NCBI GenBank assembly: GCA_001782825.1
Contig: MFPS01000008.1
Coordinates: 9,012-73,011, forward strand
Direction of reading: 5' to 3'
Origin: Candidatus Magasanikbacteria bacterium RIFCSPHIGHO2_01_FULL_33_34
Lineage (GTDB): Bacteria > Patescibacteriota > Patescibacteriia > Magasanikbacterales > UBA922
Length of the DNA stretch: 64,000 nucleotides
Shown: in pieces, positions 8,604-49,287 of the stretch
Layout: the number at the start of each line of letters is the position of its first letter
How positions within the stretch are numbered: position 1 is the first letter of the stretch
Notes under the pieces: model-generated
Database searches by the model: none
What the model was told of the DNA's origin: nothing
Seen by the model: the letters and a program-made list of their open reading frames with translations, nothing else
Program-made: the position numbers and the translations under genes

Positions 8604-11600
8604 ATGCAGGAATATAATCCAAATAAAATAGAATCAAAATGGCAAAAAGAATGGGAAAAAAACGGCCTTTATAAAACGCCAGAAGATGTTATTATAGAAA
8701 ATAAAATGTATATATTGCCACAATTGCCATATCCATCAGGATCTGGTTTGCATGTGGGTCATGCAGAAGTATATTCGGCATGTGATATATATGCGCGATA
8801 TCAGAGAATGCAAAAAAAGAAAGTTTTGCAAGTAATAGGCTGGGATAGTTTTGGATTGCCAGCAGAAAATTATGCAATAAAAAATAATGTGCACCCAAAA
8901 ATAAGTACAGACAAAGCCATTGATAATTTTAGGAGTCAAATTAAGTCATTGGGTATTTCTGTAGATTGGGATCGTGAAGTTGGGGCGCATAATCCTGATT
9001 ATTACAAATGGACACAGTGGTTTTTTTTGCTTATGTATAGACGTGGTCTTGCTTATCGTAAAAAACAAAGTGTCAATTGGTGCGATAGTTGTAAGACTGT
9101 GTTAGCAAATGAACAAGTGGTTGAAGGTCATTGTGAGCGTTGTGATACAGAAGTAGTCCAAAGAAAAATGGATCAATGGTTTTTGAAAATTACTGATTAT
9201 GCAGATCGGTTAGCAAAAGATTTGGATAAAGTAGATTGGCCAGCAGAAACAAAACGAAGACAAAGGCAATGGATAGGTCGGAGTGATGGGGCTGAGGTTG
9301 ATTTTAAAATCAAAGATTTTGATTATAAGATTTCAGTATTTACTACTCGTCCAGATACGCTTTTTGGGGCGACATATTTGGTATTGGCTCCAGAAGGTTT
9401 GATCGTGCAAGAATTAAGAGGGCAAGTAGAAAATTGGTTAGAGGTTGAAAAATATATTGATGAAACAAAAAAGAAAACAGAACTTAATCGTCAAACACAA
9501 AAAGAAAAAACTGGGGTAGAATTGAAGGGTATTAAAGCGATTAATCCGGTTAATGGAAAAGAGATGCCTATTTGGATTGCTGATTATGTTTTATCAACTT
9601 ATGGTACAGGGTCTATTATGGCAGTGCCGGCGCATGATGAGAGAGATTGGGAGTTTGCTAAGAAGTTTGGTTTGGAAATAAAAGTTGTCGTAATTCCGGT
9701 GATAGATAGTAGACCAGATGAATTGTTGAATGAAAAAATAAATTTTTATACAAATGAAACGTTACAACACGGCAGTTATTCTAAAGAAGGCTTATCAGTA
9801 AATTCCAATTTTTTAGATGGTTTAAAAAGTGAAGAAGCCAAAGAAAAAATGATAGCTTGGCTTGAAGAATATAATGTTGGCAAAAGAAAAGTCCAATTTA
9901 AACTTCGGGATTGGTCAGTGTCTCGCCAAAGGTTTTGGGGAGCTCCAATTCCAATGGTATTTAATGAAACAAGAAAAAACAAAAAATATGAATATATTTT
10001 TATTCATGGGTATGGTGGGGACAGTGAGTCAAATTATTTTCCAAAATTAAAAAAAGATTTAGAAGCAATTGGCCATACAGTGATTGCTTTTGATTTGCCA
10101 AATACGGAAAAGCCAAATATTTGTGAACAAATGCAGTTTTTGCTTGAAAATATTAGTATAAGTGAAAATACTGTTATTTTGGCACATAGTCTTGGTGGGG
10201 CTGTAGCCATGAAGATGTTAGAACATGAAAACAAAAAAGTTGCTAAAGTGATTTTTTCTGATTGTTTTTTTGAGCCAAAGTTTGCCGATGTTGCACGACC
10301 AGTTGTTGAGAGTAGCTGTGATTGGAATTTTGATTTTGAAAAATTAAAGACATTGTCAGAGGAGTTTGTAGTTGTTTTTGATTCTAATTGTCCGGTAATT
10401 CCTCGTGAACATAGTGAAAAGTTTGCCAAAAATTTGGATGCAAGAATAGTATTTGCGCGGGCTAATGGACCTCATTTTATGAGTATTCACGAACCAATAA
10501 TTTTAGAAGAGTCATTGGTCAATGGTTTAAAACCAGTTAAATTTGATGATTTGCCGGTGAAATTGCCTGATGATGTAGATTTCAAACCTACTGGACAATC
10601 TCCTTTGACATATTCAAAAGATTTTCAAAAAGGTATTGAAGATAAATATGGTTTGGGTTGGGAGAGAGAAGTGGATACACTGGATACGTTTATGTGTTCT
10701 AGTTGGTTTTATTATCGTTATCTTGATCCAAAAAATGATGATGAGTTCGCCTCAAGTATTGCCTTAAAAAAATGGATGCCAGTAGATTTTTATCTGGGTG
10801 GTGAGGAACATGTTAATGGACACTTATTGTATTCAAGGTTTTTCACCAAAGTTTTATTTGATGCTGGATATATTGATTTTGATGAACCATTTATGATGCA
10901 TAGGCATCAAGGTATGATTTTAGGTGAAGATAGCAAAAAAATGAGCAAACGTTGGTCAAATGTTATAAATCCATCTGATGTTGTAGATGAATTTGGAGCA
11001 GATACTTTTAGAGTATATGAGATGTTTATGGGTCCACTCGAACAAACTAAACCATGGAATACTGATGGTGTTCGTGGGGCGCGTAGATTTCTAGATAGAG
11101 TGTGGAATTTATACAAAAAAGTAAATTCTACAGAAAATTTAGAAGTTGAATACGATTCAATTCTTCACAAGACTATAAAAAAAGTTGGTGATGATTTGGC
11201 TACTTTTAGATTCAATACGGCCATTGCAAAGATGATGGAATTGACAAATGAATTTGTAAAAAGTGATAAAATTAGGCATACAGATTTTGAATTATTTTTA
11301 AAGATATTATCTCCATTTGCTCCACATATGACAGAAGAATTGTGGTCTGATATGGGTAATAAAAAATCAATATCATTAGAAGTTTGGCCTCAATATGATG
11401 AGAATAAAGTTATGGATAGCAAAATTATAGTGGTGGCGCAAGTAAATGGTAAAGTACGGGCAAGTTTTGAAGTGGATGTTGATATTTCAGAGAGTGATAT
11501 TAAAAAGATAGTGTTAGAAGATGCTGTTGTCAAAAAATGGTTAGCTGGCAAAGAGCCAAAGAAAGTAATTTATGTTAAGGGAAAGTTAGTATCAGTTGTA

Positions 11601-21988: not shown

Positions 21989-22127
21989 ATTTACAATGTT
22001 TTATTTTTTTGTTATACTAATAAATATCTGTTATTTATATGTAAGATATAATAGTATTGTTTATACTTTAAACTAATACTTAATTATAAATAATGCTTTT
22101 AATTCTTACAACTTATATAATATACAT

Positions 22128-25502: not shown

Positions 25503-25530
25503 GCTTTTGTATTTTTTATTTTGTATTAGC

Positions 25531-25712
25531 TATAATAGCTAGGGTTACATCTTAAACTATCATTGCACAGGTTTCAATTATTTATTTTTACTCCCTGCCT
25601 GCCGGCAGGCAGGATTCTCGCTTTGGCTCCGAGGGTGATGCCTGTTGTGGCATCAAATCCGTAAAAACAAATAATTGAAACCAATGTTTAATTATAAATA
25701 TCGCTTTTAATT
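25531..25712. repeat. structured palindromic intergenic repeat, copy a
   Basis: 17-nt inverted repeat CAATTATTTATTTTTAC...GTAAAAACAAATAATTG enclosing perfect 20-bp palindrome CCTGCCTGCCGGCAGGCAGG and hairpin GATGCCtgttgtGGCATC; near-identical copies at ~38395-38575 and ~49075-49262. Confidence 0.8.
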
Positions 25713-27779
25713 TTTTTCATCTAATGCATTTAATCTGCGTATTTCAAGTGTTTTTGCTTGTGTTGCGCGTATATAAGTTTCGTTTTCTTGATTTGTTTTG
25801 CATTGTTCTGTCCAGAGTTGGTCTAATAATCCCGCATTTTCATTGATTATTTCAATTTCTCCTTCACGAACACCATGATTGTATTTGCCATCTTTATTCC
25901 AGGCAAATGAGTGGACATATGAGATTTTTTTGATAGATAAGTTGTTGGTTGAATCAGGTGTATTGTATTCACAATTGGTTTTGGTGATTACAATGATATG
26001 ATCACGGTCTTGTTTTATGCCAGCATTTATCATTACTATAAAATCACCAGGTTTAATATTTTTTTTGAGTATAGAGTGACTATTTTCATCTTGTGCAAAA
26101 GTTAAAACATTTACATTTTGTACAATTCTTAATTTGGCTATTAATTTTCTAAAAATATTTTTTATTGTAGGGAATTTGATTACAGATTGTAAGGATTTAT
26201 TAGTCTTTGCTTTTAATTCCGCATTCAATATATAGTAGGCAAGACCAGAGCAATCAATACCTATATTATTGTCTACTAACAATTGTTTGGTTTGTTCCTG
26301 ATTGAATTTGTCTAAGTTTATTTTATTTTTTTGGGCGATGATAGAGATTTCTTCTATAATTTCTTTTGGATTACCTTTGCCAGTAAAAACTTTCAAGCCA
26401 CCGCGTATTTTTTGACGCGCATTATTAAAATAAGGTACAGAAATAAAATTATTTTTGATTGGTAAGTTCAAATAAGCATCAATTACTTTTTGGGCTTCAT
26501 TACTTAAAAAAGCAATATTTGGACAAATTATGTGTAGAATTTTTTTGCCAATATCACTTAGTCTATTGTGATCTGTCATGACTGATTGGTTGCTTTGTAT
26601 TCTCAATAGTTCTGTACCAATATTTTTATTATTGTAACCAATAACATCTAGATTATTTTTCTTTAAATCATTTATTATTTTTGTAATCTGTGGTGACCAA
26701 TCATTGTTGTGAATAATTCGTTTTATAATTTGTGAACCATTGGATATTGGTATTAATTTTTCTGTTGATGTATCTATATTGAGTAATCCTGCTAGATGAG
26801 CTTCAAAAATATTTATGCCATCATACTTAACTTTATTTTGTAGGATTGATTCAAAAGTAGTTGAAGCTGGCTGGCGAGCATTGACTTCTATCAAATACAT
26901 TTTTTTGGTTTTTTGGTCCATTATAATATCTACCCCAAATAGTCCTTTCCAGCCAAGCTCTTTTAATTTTTCAGATACTGATCTGACTATATTTTTAAAA
27001 TTTTCAATATCTACTTGAGTAAGTAATTTGTTTACTAATCCCCAGTCATTACCAATAGTTGAAAATGGCTTGTCAGTAAAATATTTAATACCAGTTATTT
27101 GATAACTAATGTTCCCGATTATTAAATCATTACCACTTAATGCATTATTATTTGTAAATATTGGACCTTCTACAAAATCTGAAATTCTAGCTTCTCTTTC
27201 TGGAAATTGTTTTTTAATTGTATCTAATTTTTCTTGACTATCAATCAAAACAGTGCCACTGCCAGTATGTGAATAATTGAATTGTAAGATAAATTTTTCT
27301 TTATTCCATTTTATATCTTTGCATTTTTCTATTTTGTAATTTAAAAAAAATTCGTTCAATGATTTGAAAATTTCAACTTGTGAAATTTTTTCTTCAATTT
27401 TATTTGATATTTTAGATGGTGGATTTAGTAGATTCCATTTATTTTCTTCACATATTTTTTCAATTTGTGCTGTATTTTTAAAAACCAAGATTGATGGATT
27501 TGTAAATTTTTTAATAAATTCTTTTGTGTCAGTATGCTTTAAAAGTTCTGCGGTACTTAATATTTCTTTTTCTTTTATTAAAAGAATATTTTTTTTGTTG
27601 ACGCTTGATTGTTTGGCAAAATCATTATTGTTTGAGATAATAAAATAACCCTCTGTGTCAGGATCAATGCTCATAGCCCTTTCAATATCACGAGTTACAT
27701 AAATTATCGGGTTTGATTTGAGTTTGTCAGTTAGGCTTTTCATAAATGTGATTATACTGTAAAATGTATGTGATTGCAA
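25707..27779 (-). CDS. ATP-grasp ligase fused to C-terminal NlpC/P60 (CHAP-like) cysteine peptidase domain
   Basis: ATP-grasp core (SHTGSGTV..., GLFGVDIIMDQKTKKMYLIEVNARQ); C-terminal GIDCSGLAYYIL ... KPGDFIVM ... DHIIVI ... YVHSF matching NlpC/P60 Cys-His-His arrangement; 690 aa. Confidence 0.65.
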   Translation of the reverse strand: MQSHTFYSIITFMKSLTDKLKSNPIIYVTRDIERAMSIDPDTEGYFIISNNNDFAKQSSVNKKNILLIKEKEILSTAELLKHTDTKEFIKKFTNPSILVFKNTAQIEKICEENKWNLLNPPSKISNKIEEKISQVEIFKSLNEFFLNYKIEKCKDIKWNKEKFILQFNYSHTGSGTVLIDSQEKLDTIKKQFPEREARISDFVEGPIFTNNNALSGNDLIIGNISYQITGIKYFTDKPFSTIGNDWGLVNKLLTQVDIENFKNIVRSVSEKLKELGWKGLFGVDIIMDQKTKKMYLIEVNARQPASTTFESILQNKVKYDGINIFEAHLAGLLNIDTSTEKLIPISNGSQIIKRIIHNNDWSPQITKIINDLKKNNLDVIGYNNKNIGTELLRIQSNQSVMTDHNRLSDIGKKILHIICPNIAFLSNEAQKVIDAYLNLPIKNNFISVPYFNNARQKIRGGLKVFTGKGNPKEIIEEISIIAQKNKINLDKFNQEQTKQLLVDNNIGIDCSGLAYYILNAELKAKTNKSLQSVIKFPTIKNIFRKLIAKLRIVQNVNVLTFAQDENSHSILKKNIKPGDFIVMINAGIKQDRDHIIVITKTNCEYNTPDSTNNLSIKKISYVHSFAWNKDGKYNHGVREGEIEIINENAGLLDQLWTEQCKTNQENETYIRATQAKTLEIRRLNALDEKN

Positions 27780-38366: not shown

Positions 38367-38394
38367 ATGTATTTTGTTGGAAATTATATGTAAG

Positions 38395-38575
38395 CTATAA
38401 TAGCATTATTTATATTTTTATCTATGACCGCATTATTTTCAATTATTTGTTTTTACTCCCTGCCTGCCGGCAGGCAGGATTCTCGCTTTGGCTCTGAGGG
38501 TGATGCATGTTGGGGCATCAAATCCGTAAAAACAAATAATTGAAAAAATGCTTAATTATAGATAATGCTCTTAAT
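38395..38575. repeat. structured palindromic intergenic repeat, copy b
   Basis: Outer TIR AGCATTATTTATA / TATAGATAATGCT, inner 17-nt IR CAATTATTTGTTTTTAC / GTAAAAACAAATAATTG (perfect), 20-bp perfect palindrome, GATGCAtgttggGGCATC hairpin. Confidence 0.8.
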
Positions 38576-38584
38576 TTTTACAAA

Positions 38585-40951
38585 TTATATTATATTTTTA
38601 AGGAATTTTAAACCCATATATAGACCAAGTCCAATGGCTCCAGAACCGGTAACTGCTATGACTTTTTCTATTATATTACGAGAGATTGGATTGGCTTGAT
38701 TTATTATATCATCCTCCAAATATTTTAATTCAGATATTTCAGTGGTTTCTCCTATTGGTTCTATGGTTTCATTTGGTTTATTATTAACCAAGTTTAACAT
38801 AGTATTGGTATCAGTAACAAGTGTAATATTATTTTCTTTTGTTATTTCTTGTGTTGTCGAAGTTATTATCGTTTCTTTGGTTGTATTTTGAACAGTATCA
38901 ATTTTGGTTATTGGTAAATTTTTTTCAATATTTTCTTCAATTAATTCTACAAAAATAGTTGATGTGACAAGCACTTCGGTTGATGTAACAAAAAGAGATT
39001 CAGTTGTGGTGTTAAAGTCTGTACCAATTATATTGCTGTATGAGTTTGAACTACTACTATTGGTTATAGTTGTAGGTATCTGTTCATTTGCTGTAGCAGG
39101 CGTAAATAATGGCTGTATAGGCCAGCTATAACCTAGTAGGGCTGGAATTGCATGTTTTGTATTGAACCAATCAACACCATCTACCCAGTCAGATGTATAA
39201 TAGCCATTTTCTTGTAAATTATCAATATATACAGACCATGGATTTTTGTCACCGATTGTCCATTCTTCTTGACCTTCACCTAGAGAATTTAAGCCCATCA
39301 AAACCCAGCTAGTGGTCAAGGTATCAGAAGTCAGATAACCCCAGCCACCATCATTATTTTGTTCATTTTTTAAATATTGCTTGGCTTTTGTAAATACACT
39401 ATTATCAATTTGAATTCCTTTTTCTTTTGCATAGTTTAATATATTTATAACTGCGCCAGTTATGTCTGCTCCGGCATAACCATCCCATGTGAATGCTCCG
39501 TCTGTATTTTGATCTGCTAAAATATCATTTAGTATATCAGTAATAATGTTTTCATTGATATTATTTTCAGATGTAAGCAATGCAAACAAAGCAAATACAT
39601 CATCATTAATTCCAGGTAATCCAAAGTCAGTTTCAGAATAACATTCGGTTTTTAGCGTATTAATTAGATTTATCATTGATTGATTATTGGTAGAAATTCC
39701 AGACGTATATAATGACAAATAGTGTCTTGGGTATGAAGCACAAACATTTAAATCAGTGGCATCAGTATAATTATAGTTTTTAATGTAGTCAGACAAGGAA
39801 GTAGAACTGGCAATAATATTAGCTGGATTTTTTCCATTGGCTACTAATGCCATTACAGACCAATCAGAAATCCCAGCATCTATGATTTTTCCAGTTTTGT
39901 CTTGGTTTTTTATTAAGAATTCGGTTAATTTATTGGCTGTGTTTGTAATTTGATTAGGTGAAATTAAATTTGTATAAGGTGTATTATTATCTGAAGATCC
40001 ACTACTTGAAGATCCGTTTGATGAATTATTTTCAGTAGTAGTAGAAATGATCGGTAGATCAAGTACATTTATGGTTATAGCGTTACTCCATTTTGAAAAG
40101 TCTGCCGGGGATATTTTTGCATAGTATGTCCCAGTCGCCGAGAACATAAAATCAACTATGCCATTTGTATCAGATACAAGCGTTGTAGTAGTTAAGGTTG
40201 TATCCCACCATCCAGTTGGGTTGGGATTGGTAATTGATATATCTATTGTATCATTGGCATCAGTTGACCATTCACTACTAGTAGTAGAAAAGTTATATTT
40301 GAAAGTTTGGAAGGTTGTAGTGGTACCAATTGGAAAGGTAGAAGTGCTAGCGGTAATTGACCATGGGTTTCCAAAGTATACATAAACATTTTCACCTCCA
40401 AATAATTCATATTTGTCCATACCGATATTTGGATATTCACCGTCTACAGCATATTGCCAATTGTAACAAGCTTCAGTGCTTGAATTAACTTCAATACAAT
40501 TTATCAAAAAACTATTAAAAGATTCATAATATACTAAATTTGAAATATTGAATGAAGCATTGTTTTGATTTTCTGTAAGGAGTGTAGTCAAAACATTATG
40601 GTTTTGTGATGAAGTTGTAAATATTTCATTGGTATTTGAATCTGTATAATCAAATGTTGTACTTGATGATAATTCAACTTCGCCTTGAAATATAAAATTA
40701 TCTTGATATCGCAAATTAAAGTTAATTGAAATTGGTTCATAAATTTCTTCTGTGGTGGTTGGTGTTTCAATAATATCATCTGTAGAGGTTGAAACTTCTT
40801 GTTCGGTTGAGCTAGTAGTTTGTGGGGTACTTGTAGAAGTGTCGCTATCATCAATAGCCCCAAAAGCAGAATTAACTGGTATGGTTATTAGTATTGAGAT
40901 AAACAGTATATTTATAAACAGTATAGGTGTATTAAAGATTTGATTTTTCAT
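38585..40951 (-). CDS. large cell-surface protein with prenyltransferase/terpenoid-cyclase-like alpha/alpha-toroid repeats; signal peptide, Ser/Thr-rich linker, C-terminal TM anchor
   Basis: Repeats such as QNTDGAFTWDGYAGADITGAVINIL, NEQNNDGGWGYLTSDTLTTSWVLMGL, GKIIDAGISDWSVMALVANG resemble squalene-cyclase/prenyltransferase-type repeats; 788 aa. Confidence 0.6.
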   Translation of the reverse strand: MKNQIFNTPILFINILFISILITIPVNSAFGAIDDSDTSTSTPQTTSSTEQEVSTSTDDIIETPTTTEEIYEPISINFNLRYQDNFIFQGEVELSSSTTFDYTDSNTNEIFTTSSQNHNVLTTLLTENQNNASFNISNLVYYESFNSFLINCIEVNSSTEACYNWQYAVDGEYPNIGMDKYELFGGENVYVYFGNPWSITASTSTFPIGTTTTFQTFKYNFSTTSSEWSTDANDTIDISITNPNPTGWWDTTLTTTTLVSDTNGIVDFMFSATGTYYAKISPADFSKWSNAITINVLDLPIISTTTENNSSNGSSSSGSSDNNTPYTNLISPNQITNTANKLTEFLIKNQDKTGKIIDAGISDWSVMALVANGKNPANIIASSTSLSDYIKNYNYTDATDLNVCASYPRHYLSLYTSGISTNNQSMINLINTLKTECYSETDFGLPGINDDVFALFALLTSENNINENIITDILNDILADQNTDGAFTWDGYAGADITGAVINILNYAKEKGIQIDNSVFTKAKQYLKNEQNNDGGWGYLTSDTLTTSWVLMGLNSLGEGQEEWTIGDKNPWSVYIDNLQENGYYTSDWVDGVDWFNTKHAIPALLGYSWPIQPLFTPATANEQIPTTITNSSSSNSYSNIIGTDFNTTTESLFVTSTEVLVTSTIFVELIEENIEKNLPITKIDTVQNTTKETIITSTTQEITKENNITLVTDTNTMLNLVNNKPNETIEPIGETTEISELKYLEDDIINQANPISRNIIEKVIAVTGSGAIGLGLYMGLKFLKNII

Positions 40952-41536: not shown

Positions 41537-41685
41537 ACTTTCCGGCAGGAAAGATAAGTTGATCAAAAATCAAAGGTCCTGCTCGGGTTACGCATTTATT
41601 TGAAGATCGGACTCGTTCCCTAAAGGGACATTACCGTTGCGGCACAGTGAGGGGATTTACCCTACTTCCACAAATAAATGGTTTA
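41537..41685 (-). promoter_or_regulatory. candidate cobalamin (B12) riboswitch with terminator-type expression platform
   Basis: Minus-strand RNA: P1 CAUUUAUUUG...CAAAUAAAUG enclosing GGGUAAAUCCCCUCACUGUGCCGCAACGGUAA (cf. consensus GGUGAAAAUCC...CCGCCACUGUAA) and GAGUCCG (start of B12 box rAGYCMG); followed by CUUUCCUGCCGGAAAG hairpin + UUUUUUAAUUUU directly before the DUF4430 ATG. Confidence 0.5.
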
Positions 41686-41784
41686 GTTGTATTGTCAGAT
41701 TATCATTGAATAGTAGTAGTGTCAAGTATTGATTTTAAGCTAAAATTAGTGTATAGTTTTGCCATATGTGGATAACTGAGTGAG

Positions 41785-41878
41785 ATTAATAGAAATTATT
41801 ATTCGCTCATTCTCGCTTTGGCTCCGAGGTGGTTGCCTGTTGTGGCAACCAAATCCGCTCGTAATAATTTCTATTAAT
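41785..41878. repeat. variant copy (d) of the structured repeat core, with different 19-nt terminal inverted repeats
   Basis: ATTAATAGAAATTATTATTCG...CGTAATAATTTCTATTAAT flank core TTCTCGCTTTGGCTCCGAGGTGGTTGCCtgttgtGGCAACCAAATCCG; hairpin shows compensatory change (GTTGCC/GGCAAC versus GATGCC/GGCATC in copies a-c). Confidence 0.7.
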
Positions 41879-41895
41879 GGTATTTTTGAAAAAGT

Positions 41896-42858
41896 ATGTG
41901 GATTGATAAAATTTTAAATAAAAACAAAAAAATAATGGCTTTGTCGCCAATGGCGGATATGACTGATTCGCCATTTTGTCGTATAGTGCGTCAAATTGGC
42001 GGAGTGGATATTGTGTTTCGAGAAATGGTGAGTAGTGAGGCTTTGGTTAGAGGAAGTGAAAAGACATTGAAAATGGCTGAATTTCACAAAACAGAAAGAC
42101 CAATTGTTCAGCAGATTTTTGGGGCAGACCCATTGATAATGGCTAGATCTGCAGATATCGTAATGCAACATTCTAATCCCGAAGGGATTGATATAAATAT
42201 GGGTTGTCCAGTTTATAAAATAACTAGTAATTTTAATGGTTGTGCTTTGATGAAGGACCCGGAGTTGGCTAGTAAGATTATAAAAGAAATGAAATCTGCA
42301 ATTGGTGATACGCCTTTGTCAGTTAAGATAAGGTTAGGTTGGAGTAATCCGGATGATTTTAAGATATTTATTCCGGCTATTGAGCGAGCTGGAGTTGATT
42401 TGATTACTGTTCATGGTAGAACAAAAGAACAAGGATATTCTGGAGTAAGTGATTGGCAGAGGATTGCAGAGGCCAAAAAAATTGCGACTGTGCCATTATT
42501 AGCCAATGGAGATATTCATGAACCTAGTCAGGTAAGTGAGGCGCTTGAAATTACTGGAGCTGATGGAGTTTTGATAGCTCGGGGCGCGCTTGGGAATCCT
42601 TGGTTTTTTGATATGATAGGAAAAAATGGTGAGATGGTCTCTTTAGATGAAAGAAAACGAGTAGTGCTAGAACATCTAAAATTGCATATTGAACATTATG
42701 GAGAACGGGGGATTGTAACTTTTAGAAAACATTTGTCTTGGTATTTCAAAACCAATAAAATAGGCCAGAATTTACCAAATATAAAAGAATGGAGATCAAA
42801 AATAGTACAAGTTAAAACTTTGGAAGAGGTGGAATCTCTGTTGGGTGAATTAAATTAA
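41896..42858 (+). CDS. tRNA-dihydrouridine synthase
   Basis: LSPMADMTDSPFCRIV, catalytic NMGCP, TIM-barrel Dus pattern; 320 aa (alternative ATG at 41935). Confidence 0.9.
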   Translation: MWIDKILNKNKKIMALSPMADMTDSPFCRIVRQIGGVDIVFREMVSSEALVRGSEKTLKMAEFHKTERPIVQQIFGADPLIMARSADIVMQHSNPEGIDINMGCPVYKITSNFNGCALMKDPELASKIIKEMKSAIGDTPLSVKIRLGWSNPDDFKIFIPAIERAGVDLITVHGRTKEQGYSGVSDWQRIAEAKKIATVPLLANGDIHEPSQVSEALEITGADGVLIARGALGNPWFFDMIGKNGEMVSLDERKRVVLEHLKLHIEHYGERGIVTFRKHLSWYFKTNKIGQNLPNIKEWRSKIVQVKTLEEVESLLGELN

Positions 42859-49017: not shown

Positions 49018-49074
49018 AAATGAATGATTTTATATTTATATAAGTATATAAGTAATGTGAATTAATTTGTAAGT

Positions 49075-49262
49075 TATAATAGCATTATTTATACTTTCAA
49101 TCACGACCATATTATTTTCAATTATTTATTTTTACTCCCTGCCTGCCGGCAGGCAGGATTCTCGCTATGGCTCCGAGGGTGATGCATGTTGGGGCATCAA
49201 ATCCGTAAAAATAAATAATTGAAAATAATGCTTAATTATAAATAACGCTTTCAATTTTTACA
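49075..49262. repeat. structured palindromic intergenic repeat, copy c
   Basis: Outer TIR AGCATTATTTATA / TATAAATAACGCT, inner IR CAATTATTTATTTTTAC / GTAAAAATAAATAATTG (perfect, compensatory A/T versus G/C in copy b), 20-bp perfect palindrome; left flank on minus strand reads TTGAAA-16nt-TATAAC toward purN. Confidence 0.8.
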
Positions 49263-49287
49263 ATTAATTTATAGTATTCACATATGC

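Follow-up and report, generated by a model that had tools for sequence, protein, structure and literature searches.

The locus and its repeated elements

The window, by which I mean the whole stretch of 64,000 nucleotides analysed here, is a chromosome segment of 33% GC from a Candidatus Magasanikbacteria (CPR) of Rifle-type groundwater. Its genes serve ordinary cellular tasks (purine synthesis, the Sec system, cell-wall (murein) synthesis). The products of two of them, dus and guaA, are identical to OGH58837 and OGH58839, and the locus is present in several assemblies. Labels of the form L0xx denote the contigs and loci with which the window was compared. Set among the genes, in AT-rich intergenic DNA, are five members (a to e) of a family of non-coding elements 69 to 193 bp in length.

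Four of the five carry the same 20-mer, TTCTCGCTTTGGCTCCGAGG, which occurs at 25615 (a), 38480 (b), 41810 (d) and 49159 (c), always on the + strand, and not at all in shuffled sequence. A sequence-only reading of this DNA was right, then, to say that d keeps the core of a to c. The length of about 100 nt that it implied for the repeats was too short, since alignment of the flanks shows a, b, and c to be about 192 bp long. Copy b is a full element of 192 bp (38390-38581, + strand), with terminal repeats, long arms, a GC palindrome (38459-38478), and a core (38479-38526). Its edges read GTAAGCTATAATAGCATTATTTATA... at one end and ...TATAGATAATGCTCTTAATTTTTAC at the other, and outside them on the + strand lie the two copies of a 9-bp duplication, AAATTATAT, identical at 9 of 9 positions (38381-38389 and 38582-38590). 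Copy c, also full, has 193 bp (49069-49261, + strand; GC palindrome 49138-49157, core 49158-49205) and is bordered by a different 9-bp duplication, AATTAATTT, again 9 of 9 on the + strand (49060-49068 and 49262-49270). Copy a (25523-25718, + strand; GC palindrome 25594-25613, core 25614-25661) is an older, partly decayed full element, in whose flanks no recognisable target duplication was found. The fifth, e (22041-22109, no strand assigned), is a palindromic relative of 69 bp, consisting only of the two terminal repeats known from b and c, without a core. It was detected through the terminal motif AGCRTTRTYTATA, its flanks agree at 7 of 9 positions (TATTTATAT / AACTTATAT), and it represents a collapsed derivative of the family or else its bare frame. 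It sits between divergent genes.

Elements b, c, and e share their ends, GTAAG..AGCRTTRTTTATA, with those of L012, L013, L018, L029, and L053c. In d and in the L045 element the ends are unlike these repeats of b and c, and the long arms, too, vary from one subfamily to another. Ends of the b/c type resemble inward-facing sigma-70 promoters (TTGTAA, 17 nt, TATAAT), found on the - strand at 38555-38583, 49233-49263, and 22083-22111; the last two bases of the flank (TT, from the target DNA) together with the terminal GTAA make up the TTGTAA. Of eight elements, six have the better promoter match at the end lying 3' of the core, and one is a tie.

Two neighbours of the elements deserve mention in their own right. 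Adjoining b is a gene for a protein of 788 amino acids (38585-40951; weak DUF4430 and squalene-cyclase-like matches) that is missing in a relative whose Dus protein is 81% identical (L042 8775-9755), where the DUF6580 and DUF4430 genes are adjacent. This appears to be a case of gene gain or loss next to a mobile element. On the - strand at 41593-41680, upstream of the DUF4430, 788-aa, and DUF6580 genes, is a sequence resembling the aptamer of an AdoCbl (B12) riboswitch (43.6 bits against a gathering threshold of 50, E 7e-7). Its sequence is conserved in L042 (~9790-9910), and it is probably a genuine sub-threshold CPR variant that controls a B12-related uptake operon.

A forked hairpin in front of dus

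The hairpin module of copy d occupies 41785-41878 on the + strand and is made up of a 5' arm (41785-41806), UC (41807-41808), a core (41809-41856), and a 3' arm (41857-41878). Its letters run, in order, ATTAATAGAAATTATTA-TT-CGC, TC, ATTCTCGCTTTGGCTCCGAGG TGGTTGCC TGTTGT GGCAACCA AATCC, GCTCG-TAATAATTTCTATTAAT. The stretch 41785-41801, ATTAATAGAAATTATTA, has its exact reverse complement at 41862-41878, giving a perfect repeat of 17 bp, after which come a 2-nt TT bulge and a further CG/CG pair (17+2 bp). The terminal repeats of 19 nt earlier attributed to d are approximately right, provided that they are read as 17 perfect pairs plus the CG/CG pair past the bulge. It is also the case, as the same reading had it, that d is without the 20-bp GC palindrome: CCTGCCTGCCGGCAGGCAGG is confined in the window to a, b, and c.

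Two smaller hairpins lie in the tip. P2 (41812-41828, + strand) consists of CUCG and CGAG on either side of a 9-nt loop, CUUUGGCUC. P3 (41830-41851, + strand), the one that covaries, is an 8-bp stem, TGGTTGCC/GGCAACCA, with loop UGUUGU. In copy a, P3 is TGATGCC/GGCATCA, from which d differs by the flip of one A-T pair to T-A and by one extra pair. The claim that the hairpin of d had changed in a way that preserves pairing stands as regards the flip, but not as regards the uniform hairpin supposed for a to c, because b and c read GATGCA...GGGCATC, in which the innermost pair is broken. Both strands of d give the same long hairpin with a forked tip, and each is far below its shuffled controls, with z values for the two strands of -6.6 and -7.4 as RNA and of -6.9 and -7.3 as DNA.

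Insertion of copy d into dus

The module is only part of what was inserted. The whole unit of 121 bp (41774-41894, + strand) consists of AACTGAGTGAG, the module, and GGTATTTTTGAAAAAG, and is missing in relatives. It is flanked on the + strand by two copies of the 9-bp sequence TATGTGGAT, a direct repeat that the sequence-only reading overlooked: the left one (41765-41773) contains the original start codon of dus and the right one (41895-41903) contains the present start codon, at 41896. The dus site is uninterrupted in three related Magasanikbacteria (L042, L043, L045). Identity between the Dus protein of the window and those of the relatives used for this comparison is 77-83%, and dus starts in the relatives with ATGTGGATAA. 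In L042, dus lies directly 3' of a promoter look-alike (TTGATT, 17 nt, TATAAT), and the module is absent. In the window the native look-alike (41729-41757, + strand; TTGATT, 17 nt, TATAGT), conserved in L042, is followed by ATGTGGATAAC, then by the 121 bp, and then by a second ATGTGGAT that is the current start codon, so that element d now stands between the native promoter look-alike and dus.

By this comparison copy d is a recent, lineage-specific insertion that struck dus within its first codons. On this reading the start codon was restored by the 9-bp duplication, leaving dus intact and the hairpin in its leader. This makes the insertion a clean natural example of a start codon that is hit by an insertion and repaired by target duplication. 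On this arrangement copy d would have to be transcribed within the dus leader. In relatives, dus is seemingly almost leaderless (in L042: TATAAT, 8 nt, ATG). The leader in the window is now about 130 nt long, with a hairpin of -34 kcal/mol, and a uORF of five codons (41766-41783, ATG TGG ATA ACT GAG TGA) has been built from the old dus start by the insertion.

Two other readings of the surroundings of d were considered and rejected. The sequence TGTGGATAA flanking d can be taken for a DnaA box, but it is the dus start (ATGTGGATAA) duplicated by the insertion. To the left of d is a stretch that could pass for a decayed terminal repeat; it is the native promoter of dus and is conserved in L042.

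The sequence-only reading had set selection on structure against simple recent transposition. That opposition does not survive. Copy d is a lineage-specific insertion in its own right, with a 9-bp duplication and with empty sites in three relatives, and the perfect 9-bp duplications around b and c count against the opposition as well. The duplications around b, c, and d, each of 9 bp, are unrelated in sequence. Because d, b, and c are insertions with duplications, the differences between d and copies a to c are differences between subfamilies and not compensatory evolution at one locus.

The family in other genomes

Altogether there are 13 independent insertions that bear the core, on seven contigs and in at least four Magasanikbacteria genomes, a small sample from one bacterial class, with several of its members from one aquifer. 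A scan of metagenomes gave one site in a contig of 33% GC (L025) and five insertion sites in an organism of 45% GC (L011/L029, L012, L013, L018/L034, and a second L024 site), which is Magasanikbacteria-like by the similarity of its DnaK. A search with a covariance model of the core and a descriptor gave a diverged copy in L045 and, in 22 kb of L053, three more, among them the L025 site. No copy was found in about 20 kb from each of the further relatives L042, L043, and L054-L059, so the distribution is patchy.

Signs of insertion are found outside the window as well. The insertion between hsp20 and dnaK in L024 is lineage-specific, L053 having a spacer of 38 bp at this place and L054 one of 11 bp. 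Target duplications match at 7 of 9 positions in L053c, at 7 of 7 within 9 in L012, and over 8 bp in L045; none was recognisable in the flanks of L013 and L018. Three independent insertions lie in spacers of heat-shock operons (L053 8856-8947, L012 5499-5593, and L024 2929-3023), in two genomes and all in the sense direction, the spacers being hrcA/grpE, grpE/hsp20, and hsp20/dnaK. They may reflect a target preference or chance.

A scan of genome contigs, from GTDB representatives that do not include the source genome, yielded eight single matches, all of them in unrelated phyla and outside the Magasanikbacteria, and I take these as chance. Viral contigs searched with a gapped pattern gave chance matches only, collections of plasmids and phages gave no match to the family, and a search of the literature, including by sequence string, turned up nothing on this hairpin family. 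By eye, short ORFs are not conserved in frame between subfamilies; one of 21 codons on the minus strand of a to c was rejected as coding, as it is out of frame in d and L012. Directly 3' of the module in L045, and 5' of an ORF of 89 amino acids, is a GC-rich, structured-looking region (L045 3640-3760), which gave no Rfam match at E up to 5.

What is conserved and what is free

Every module follows the same plan: 5' arm, UC, AUU CUCG (loop) CGAG G, P3, AAUCC, 3' arm. The tip is asymmetric, about 50 nt, with a P3 of 7-8 bp and loop UGUUG, and the closing stem has 17-27 bp. In all 13 copies the arms begin exactly at both boundaries of the core, and their first pair is always C-G. Beyond this the arms fall into six types with no sequence similarity to each other. 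There are likewise six versions of P3 (TGATGCC, TGGTTGCC, CAGTTGTC, TGTTTGGC, CATTTGG, and CATTTGCC). The P2 loop varies at several positions and in L045 is 35 nt larger (41 vs 6 nt between conserved anchors), with small hairpins of its own. The 20-bp palindrome is an exact insert between UC and AUU and is found only inside modules: besides the three sites in the window given above, it occurs at L053 14311-14330. It is identical at 20 of 20 positions in two subfamilies with unrelated arms and different P3 (a to c, and L053b), and it is absent from L053c (L053 16778-16860), which has arms like those of b and the rest of a to c. The three-way fold is the minimum-energy DNA structure of either strand in nearly all of the ten copies folded; the DNA folds of b and L045 depart from it only inside P2.

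In a model-based alignment of nine distinct sequences, five of the eight pairs of P3 have changed on both sides, and 96% of cells are paired. The inner 12 bp of the long stem behave similarly, with two-sided changes at 8 of 12 pairs and 92% of cells paired (13 copies). When the partners are slid by one to three columns as a control, the paired fraction is 29-58%, and no shuffle matches the observed covariation score. The unpaired bases of the junction are invariant, and so are the P2 stem and the AUU/AAU pairs, save one G-U (b) and one A.C (L053a). Copy d differs from L025 at seven positions, six of them among the 16 of P3 and one among the other 33. The constraint on the tip is thus one of sequence, and that on P3 and the arms one of pairing only. 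P3 and the arms keep nothing but their pairing, and the junction, the P2 stem, and the P3 loop keep their sequence.

A real constraint on pairing, which the sequence-only reading had proposed from the copies in the window, is thus supported by two-sided changes in 9 to 13 copies from several genomes.

Orientation with respect to replication

In 13 of 13 insertions, on 7 of 7 contigs, the core is written on the G-rich strand, the one with positive GC3 skew. With respect to flanking genes, eight are sense and five antisense. GC3 skew on the + strand of the window is +0.51 for + genes and +0.34 for - genes, the window being a single replichore. In L053 the values by gene direction are +0.40 and +0.31; in L013, L011, and L045 the skew is positive for both gene directions, and it is positive in L024 and L018. 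The G-rich strand has the sequence of the leading strand, and the parental strand of that sequence templates lagging-strand synthesis. As for the genes themselves, 27 of the 47 in the window are on the lagging strand despite the strong skew, the bias of genes between strands being weak.

In L029 the two types of terminal repeat have changed places relative to the core when compared with b, which means that the core, not the frame of the element, tracks replication. The orientation of the core follows replication whichever way the neighbouring genes run and whichever kind of terminal repeat stands at either end. So strict an orientation to replication, with none to transcription, leans towards DNA rather than RNA as the form in which the structure acts.

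Which strand folds is a separate matter. Mismatches in the stems, counted by eye on the core strand, are A.C eight times and G.T once. When the copies are folded as DNA, the complementary strand comes out slightly ahead in 8 of 10. Wobble counts (8 to 1) and DNA energies thus both lean to the complement, while it is the written strand that the orientation to replication assigns to the lagging-strand template. The strand exposed on that template may not necessarily be the one that folds.

A mobile hairpin element with a conserved tip

Copy d is an insertion of one subfamily of MITE-like hairpin elements of Magasanikbacteria. I propose that the tip is their propagation signal, probably acting as a folded single strand at the replication fork. 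I would put the probability of this explanation as a whole at roughly 0.55. The family is MITE-like by its size, copy number, target duplications, and empty sites, and atypical in that its centre is conserved but not its arms nor, in some subfamilies, its ends. Subfamilies with unrelated ends share the tip, and only copies that propagate can found subfamilies, so the tip would be the cis-acting part that propagation needs. The strict orientation to the replication strand argues in turn that the tip works as folded single-stranded DNA at the fork.

According to this model, the hairpin would be extruded from one strand at the replication fork, the tip probably acting as a folded single strand, and the sole part of the arms would be to extrude and display it. 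The tip would be recognised by an enzyme acting in trans and encoded elsewhere, which would mobilise the element in a manner that is coupled to replication and specific to one strand. Neither the window nor the neighbourhood of any copy showed a transposase, an HUH (IS200/IS605-type single-strand DNA) nuclease, an integrase, or a reverse transcriptase. A Pfam scan of 40 proteins (33 from the window and 7 from beside copies on other contigs) matched 30 to ordinary cellular families and 10 to none, with nothing transposase-like among the 40; within the window, 29 of the 33 ORFs match ordinary cellular families, four match nothing, and none is transposase-like. No parent IS with the same ends was found in the window or at the loci examined. 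That one enzyme serves all subfamilies is an assumption, given how unlike the others the ends of d and L045 are.

It is instructive to set the family beside known ones. Correia/NEMIS (Neisseria), RUP and BOX (both of pneumococcus), and ERIC/IRU are bacterial MITEs that form long hairpins; a review, PMC3184786, was drawn on for the comparison. The Magasanikbacteria elements resemble these in being non-coding, intergenic, and multi-copy, within 70-200 bp, in their target duplications, and, where the ends are of the b/c type, in terminal inverted repeats and promoter-like ends. They differ in where conservation lies, for those MITEs have conserved ends and a free middle, whereas in the present family it is the middle that is kept and the arms that vary freely. 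The Correia duplication is TA, whereas here it is 9 bp, and strict orientation to the replication strand, a CPR lineage, and the want of a known parent IS also set the present elements apart. Correia/NEMIS, RUP, BOX, and ERIC/IRU are co-transcribed with their neighbours as long hairpins.

Hairpins folded in one strand of DNA are a likeness to the IS200/IS605 derivatives (PATEs) and to REP/REPIN-RAYT, whose mobility depends on them. IS200/IS605 elements are known to be biased in their orientation to replication, and here the orientation is fixed relative to the fork in 13 of 13 cases. Membership in the IS200/IS605 type or among REPINs was nevertheless rejected. Elements of those types leave no target duplication, insert 3' of a fixed tetranucleotide, and lack terminal inverted repeats; unrelated duplications of 9 bp flank b, c, and d. 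The conserved part of a REPIN is its arms, with a GTAG tag, whereas here it is the tip, and neither the window nor the genes beside the copies showed a Y1 (IS200/IS605-type tyrosine) transposase. The integron attC site is similar in that structure is conserved and the sequence and length of the stem vary, and it is used as a folded single strand, in a strand-specific way. The elements are unlike it in having no R''/R' boxes (RYYYAAC/GTTRRRY), no cassette array or integrase, and in having target duplications. As no GTTRRRY/RYYYAAC pair could be seen by eye at the base of any stem, attC was rejected too. The enzymes that recognise hairpins (IS200/IS605 TnpA, the REP-associated RAYT, and the integron integrase IntI) are not known to make a target duplication. 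The elements here have such duplications, so membership in those families fails.

Alternative views of the tip

It is possible, though I think doubtful, that the tip is cargo, in the form of a structured RNA: a small RNA, a site of processing or self-cleavage, or a protein-binding RNA. This is the main rival to the propagation signal. The RNA would be transcribed from the promoter-like terminal repeats and would most likely be the complement of the strand written here, the long stem and P3 being RNA helices. The architecture is typical of RNA, with a three-way junction of invariant bases, covarying helices, and peripheral stems of variable length. In its invariant junction, covarying stems, and optional extensions the module is like the small three-way-junction RNAs (hammerhead and other self-cleaving ribozymes, purine-type aptamers), which are often carried on repeats. 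Copy d is necessarily transcribed in the dus leader if the arrangement is read correctly, and the complement is favoured in three respects: the inward TTGTAA, 17 nt, TATAAT that would drive it scores equal or better in seven of eight elements, eight stem mismatches against one become G-U on it, and it folds slightly better in 8 of 10 copies. But orientation tracks replication in 13 of 13 cases and is split 8 to 5 with respect to neighbouring transcription, and transcription of the complement would run head-on into the replication fork in every copy. Five copies (d, L045, L053a, L053b, and L024b) are without promoter-like ends, no terminator is found around b and d, and in copy b one P2 variant is a G-U only on the other strand. 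Nor is the module a match to any Rfam family, ribozymes included, at E up to 10: the window gives no match to it in Rfam 15 at the gathering threshold, and four copies taken to E up to 10 match only generic long hairpins (miRNA precursors). No covariance model of the small three-way-junction RNAs matches it at any threshold, its orientation does not follow transcription, and the junction looks unlike the hammerhead CUGAUGA/GAAA by eye. Several more specific identities were also examined and dropped. Hammerhead, twister, pistol, T-loop, T-box, kink-turn, and an IHF (integration host factor) site do not fit either strand by eye, and a role as intrinsic terminator was rejected, there being no terminator-like site on either strand around b and d and no T runs.

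Two further views were weighed. It could be that there is no function at all: arms and P3 would covary because gene conversion or hairpin-templated repair makes the halves of a palindrome correct each other, and the core would owe its conservation solely to the youth of the family. Palindrome arms do evolve in concert, and all copies come from the one bacterial class already mentioned, several from the same aquifer. It is hard to see how youth alone would serve, since arms and P3 have diverged to saturation while the 33 core positions outside P3 differ at one site between d and L025, and since the same core is found in genomes of 33% and 45% GC. The strand bias of 13 in 13 is not expected of inert DNA either, and I hold this view to be improbable. 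The other is that mobility resides in the core alone (UCAUU...AAUCC, about 55 nt), which would insert at the centres of palindromes already present. That would explain why arms are unrelated and why pairing starts exactly where the core ends. Indeed, arms abut the core symmetrically in 13 of 13 copies, with an invariant C-G as first pair, and the 20-bp palindrome and arm type assort independently (a to c and L053b with it; L053c, with b-like arms, without). Yet no empty palindrome for any of the six arm types was found in about 700 kb searched, target duplications border the whole hairpin and not the core, and each arm type recurs in several copies with the same P3, which means that arms and core move as one unit. 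A core moving by itself is therefore very improbable.

Implications

Target duplications are the mark of insertion by a DDE-type (classical cut-and-paste) transposase. The elements combine this mark with those of single-strand hairpins, namely orientation to replication and stems conserved in structure only. A bolder idea, rather unlikely in my estimation, is that the tip is the recognition module of an undescribed form of DNA mobility in CPR, with a trans-acting enzyme that reads a folded three-way-junction hairpin on one strand at the fork, much like HUH transposases or integron integrases, and yet inserts the element by staggered cuts of 9 bp, or else a new catalytic or processing RNA that rides on a transposon.

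As a mobilisation signal, the tip would point to an undescribed enzyme; as an RNA, it would be a three-way-junction motif outside any present class. In either case the family reverses the usual logic of MITEs, with a conserved centre and free ends, and it does so in CPR/Patescibacteria, organisms of tiny genomes whose mobile DNA and non-coding RNA are almost uncharted.
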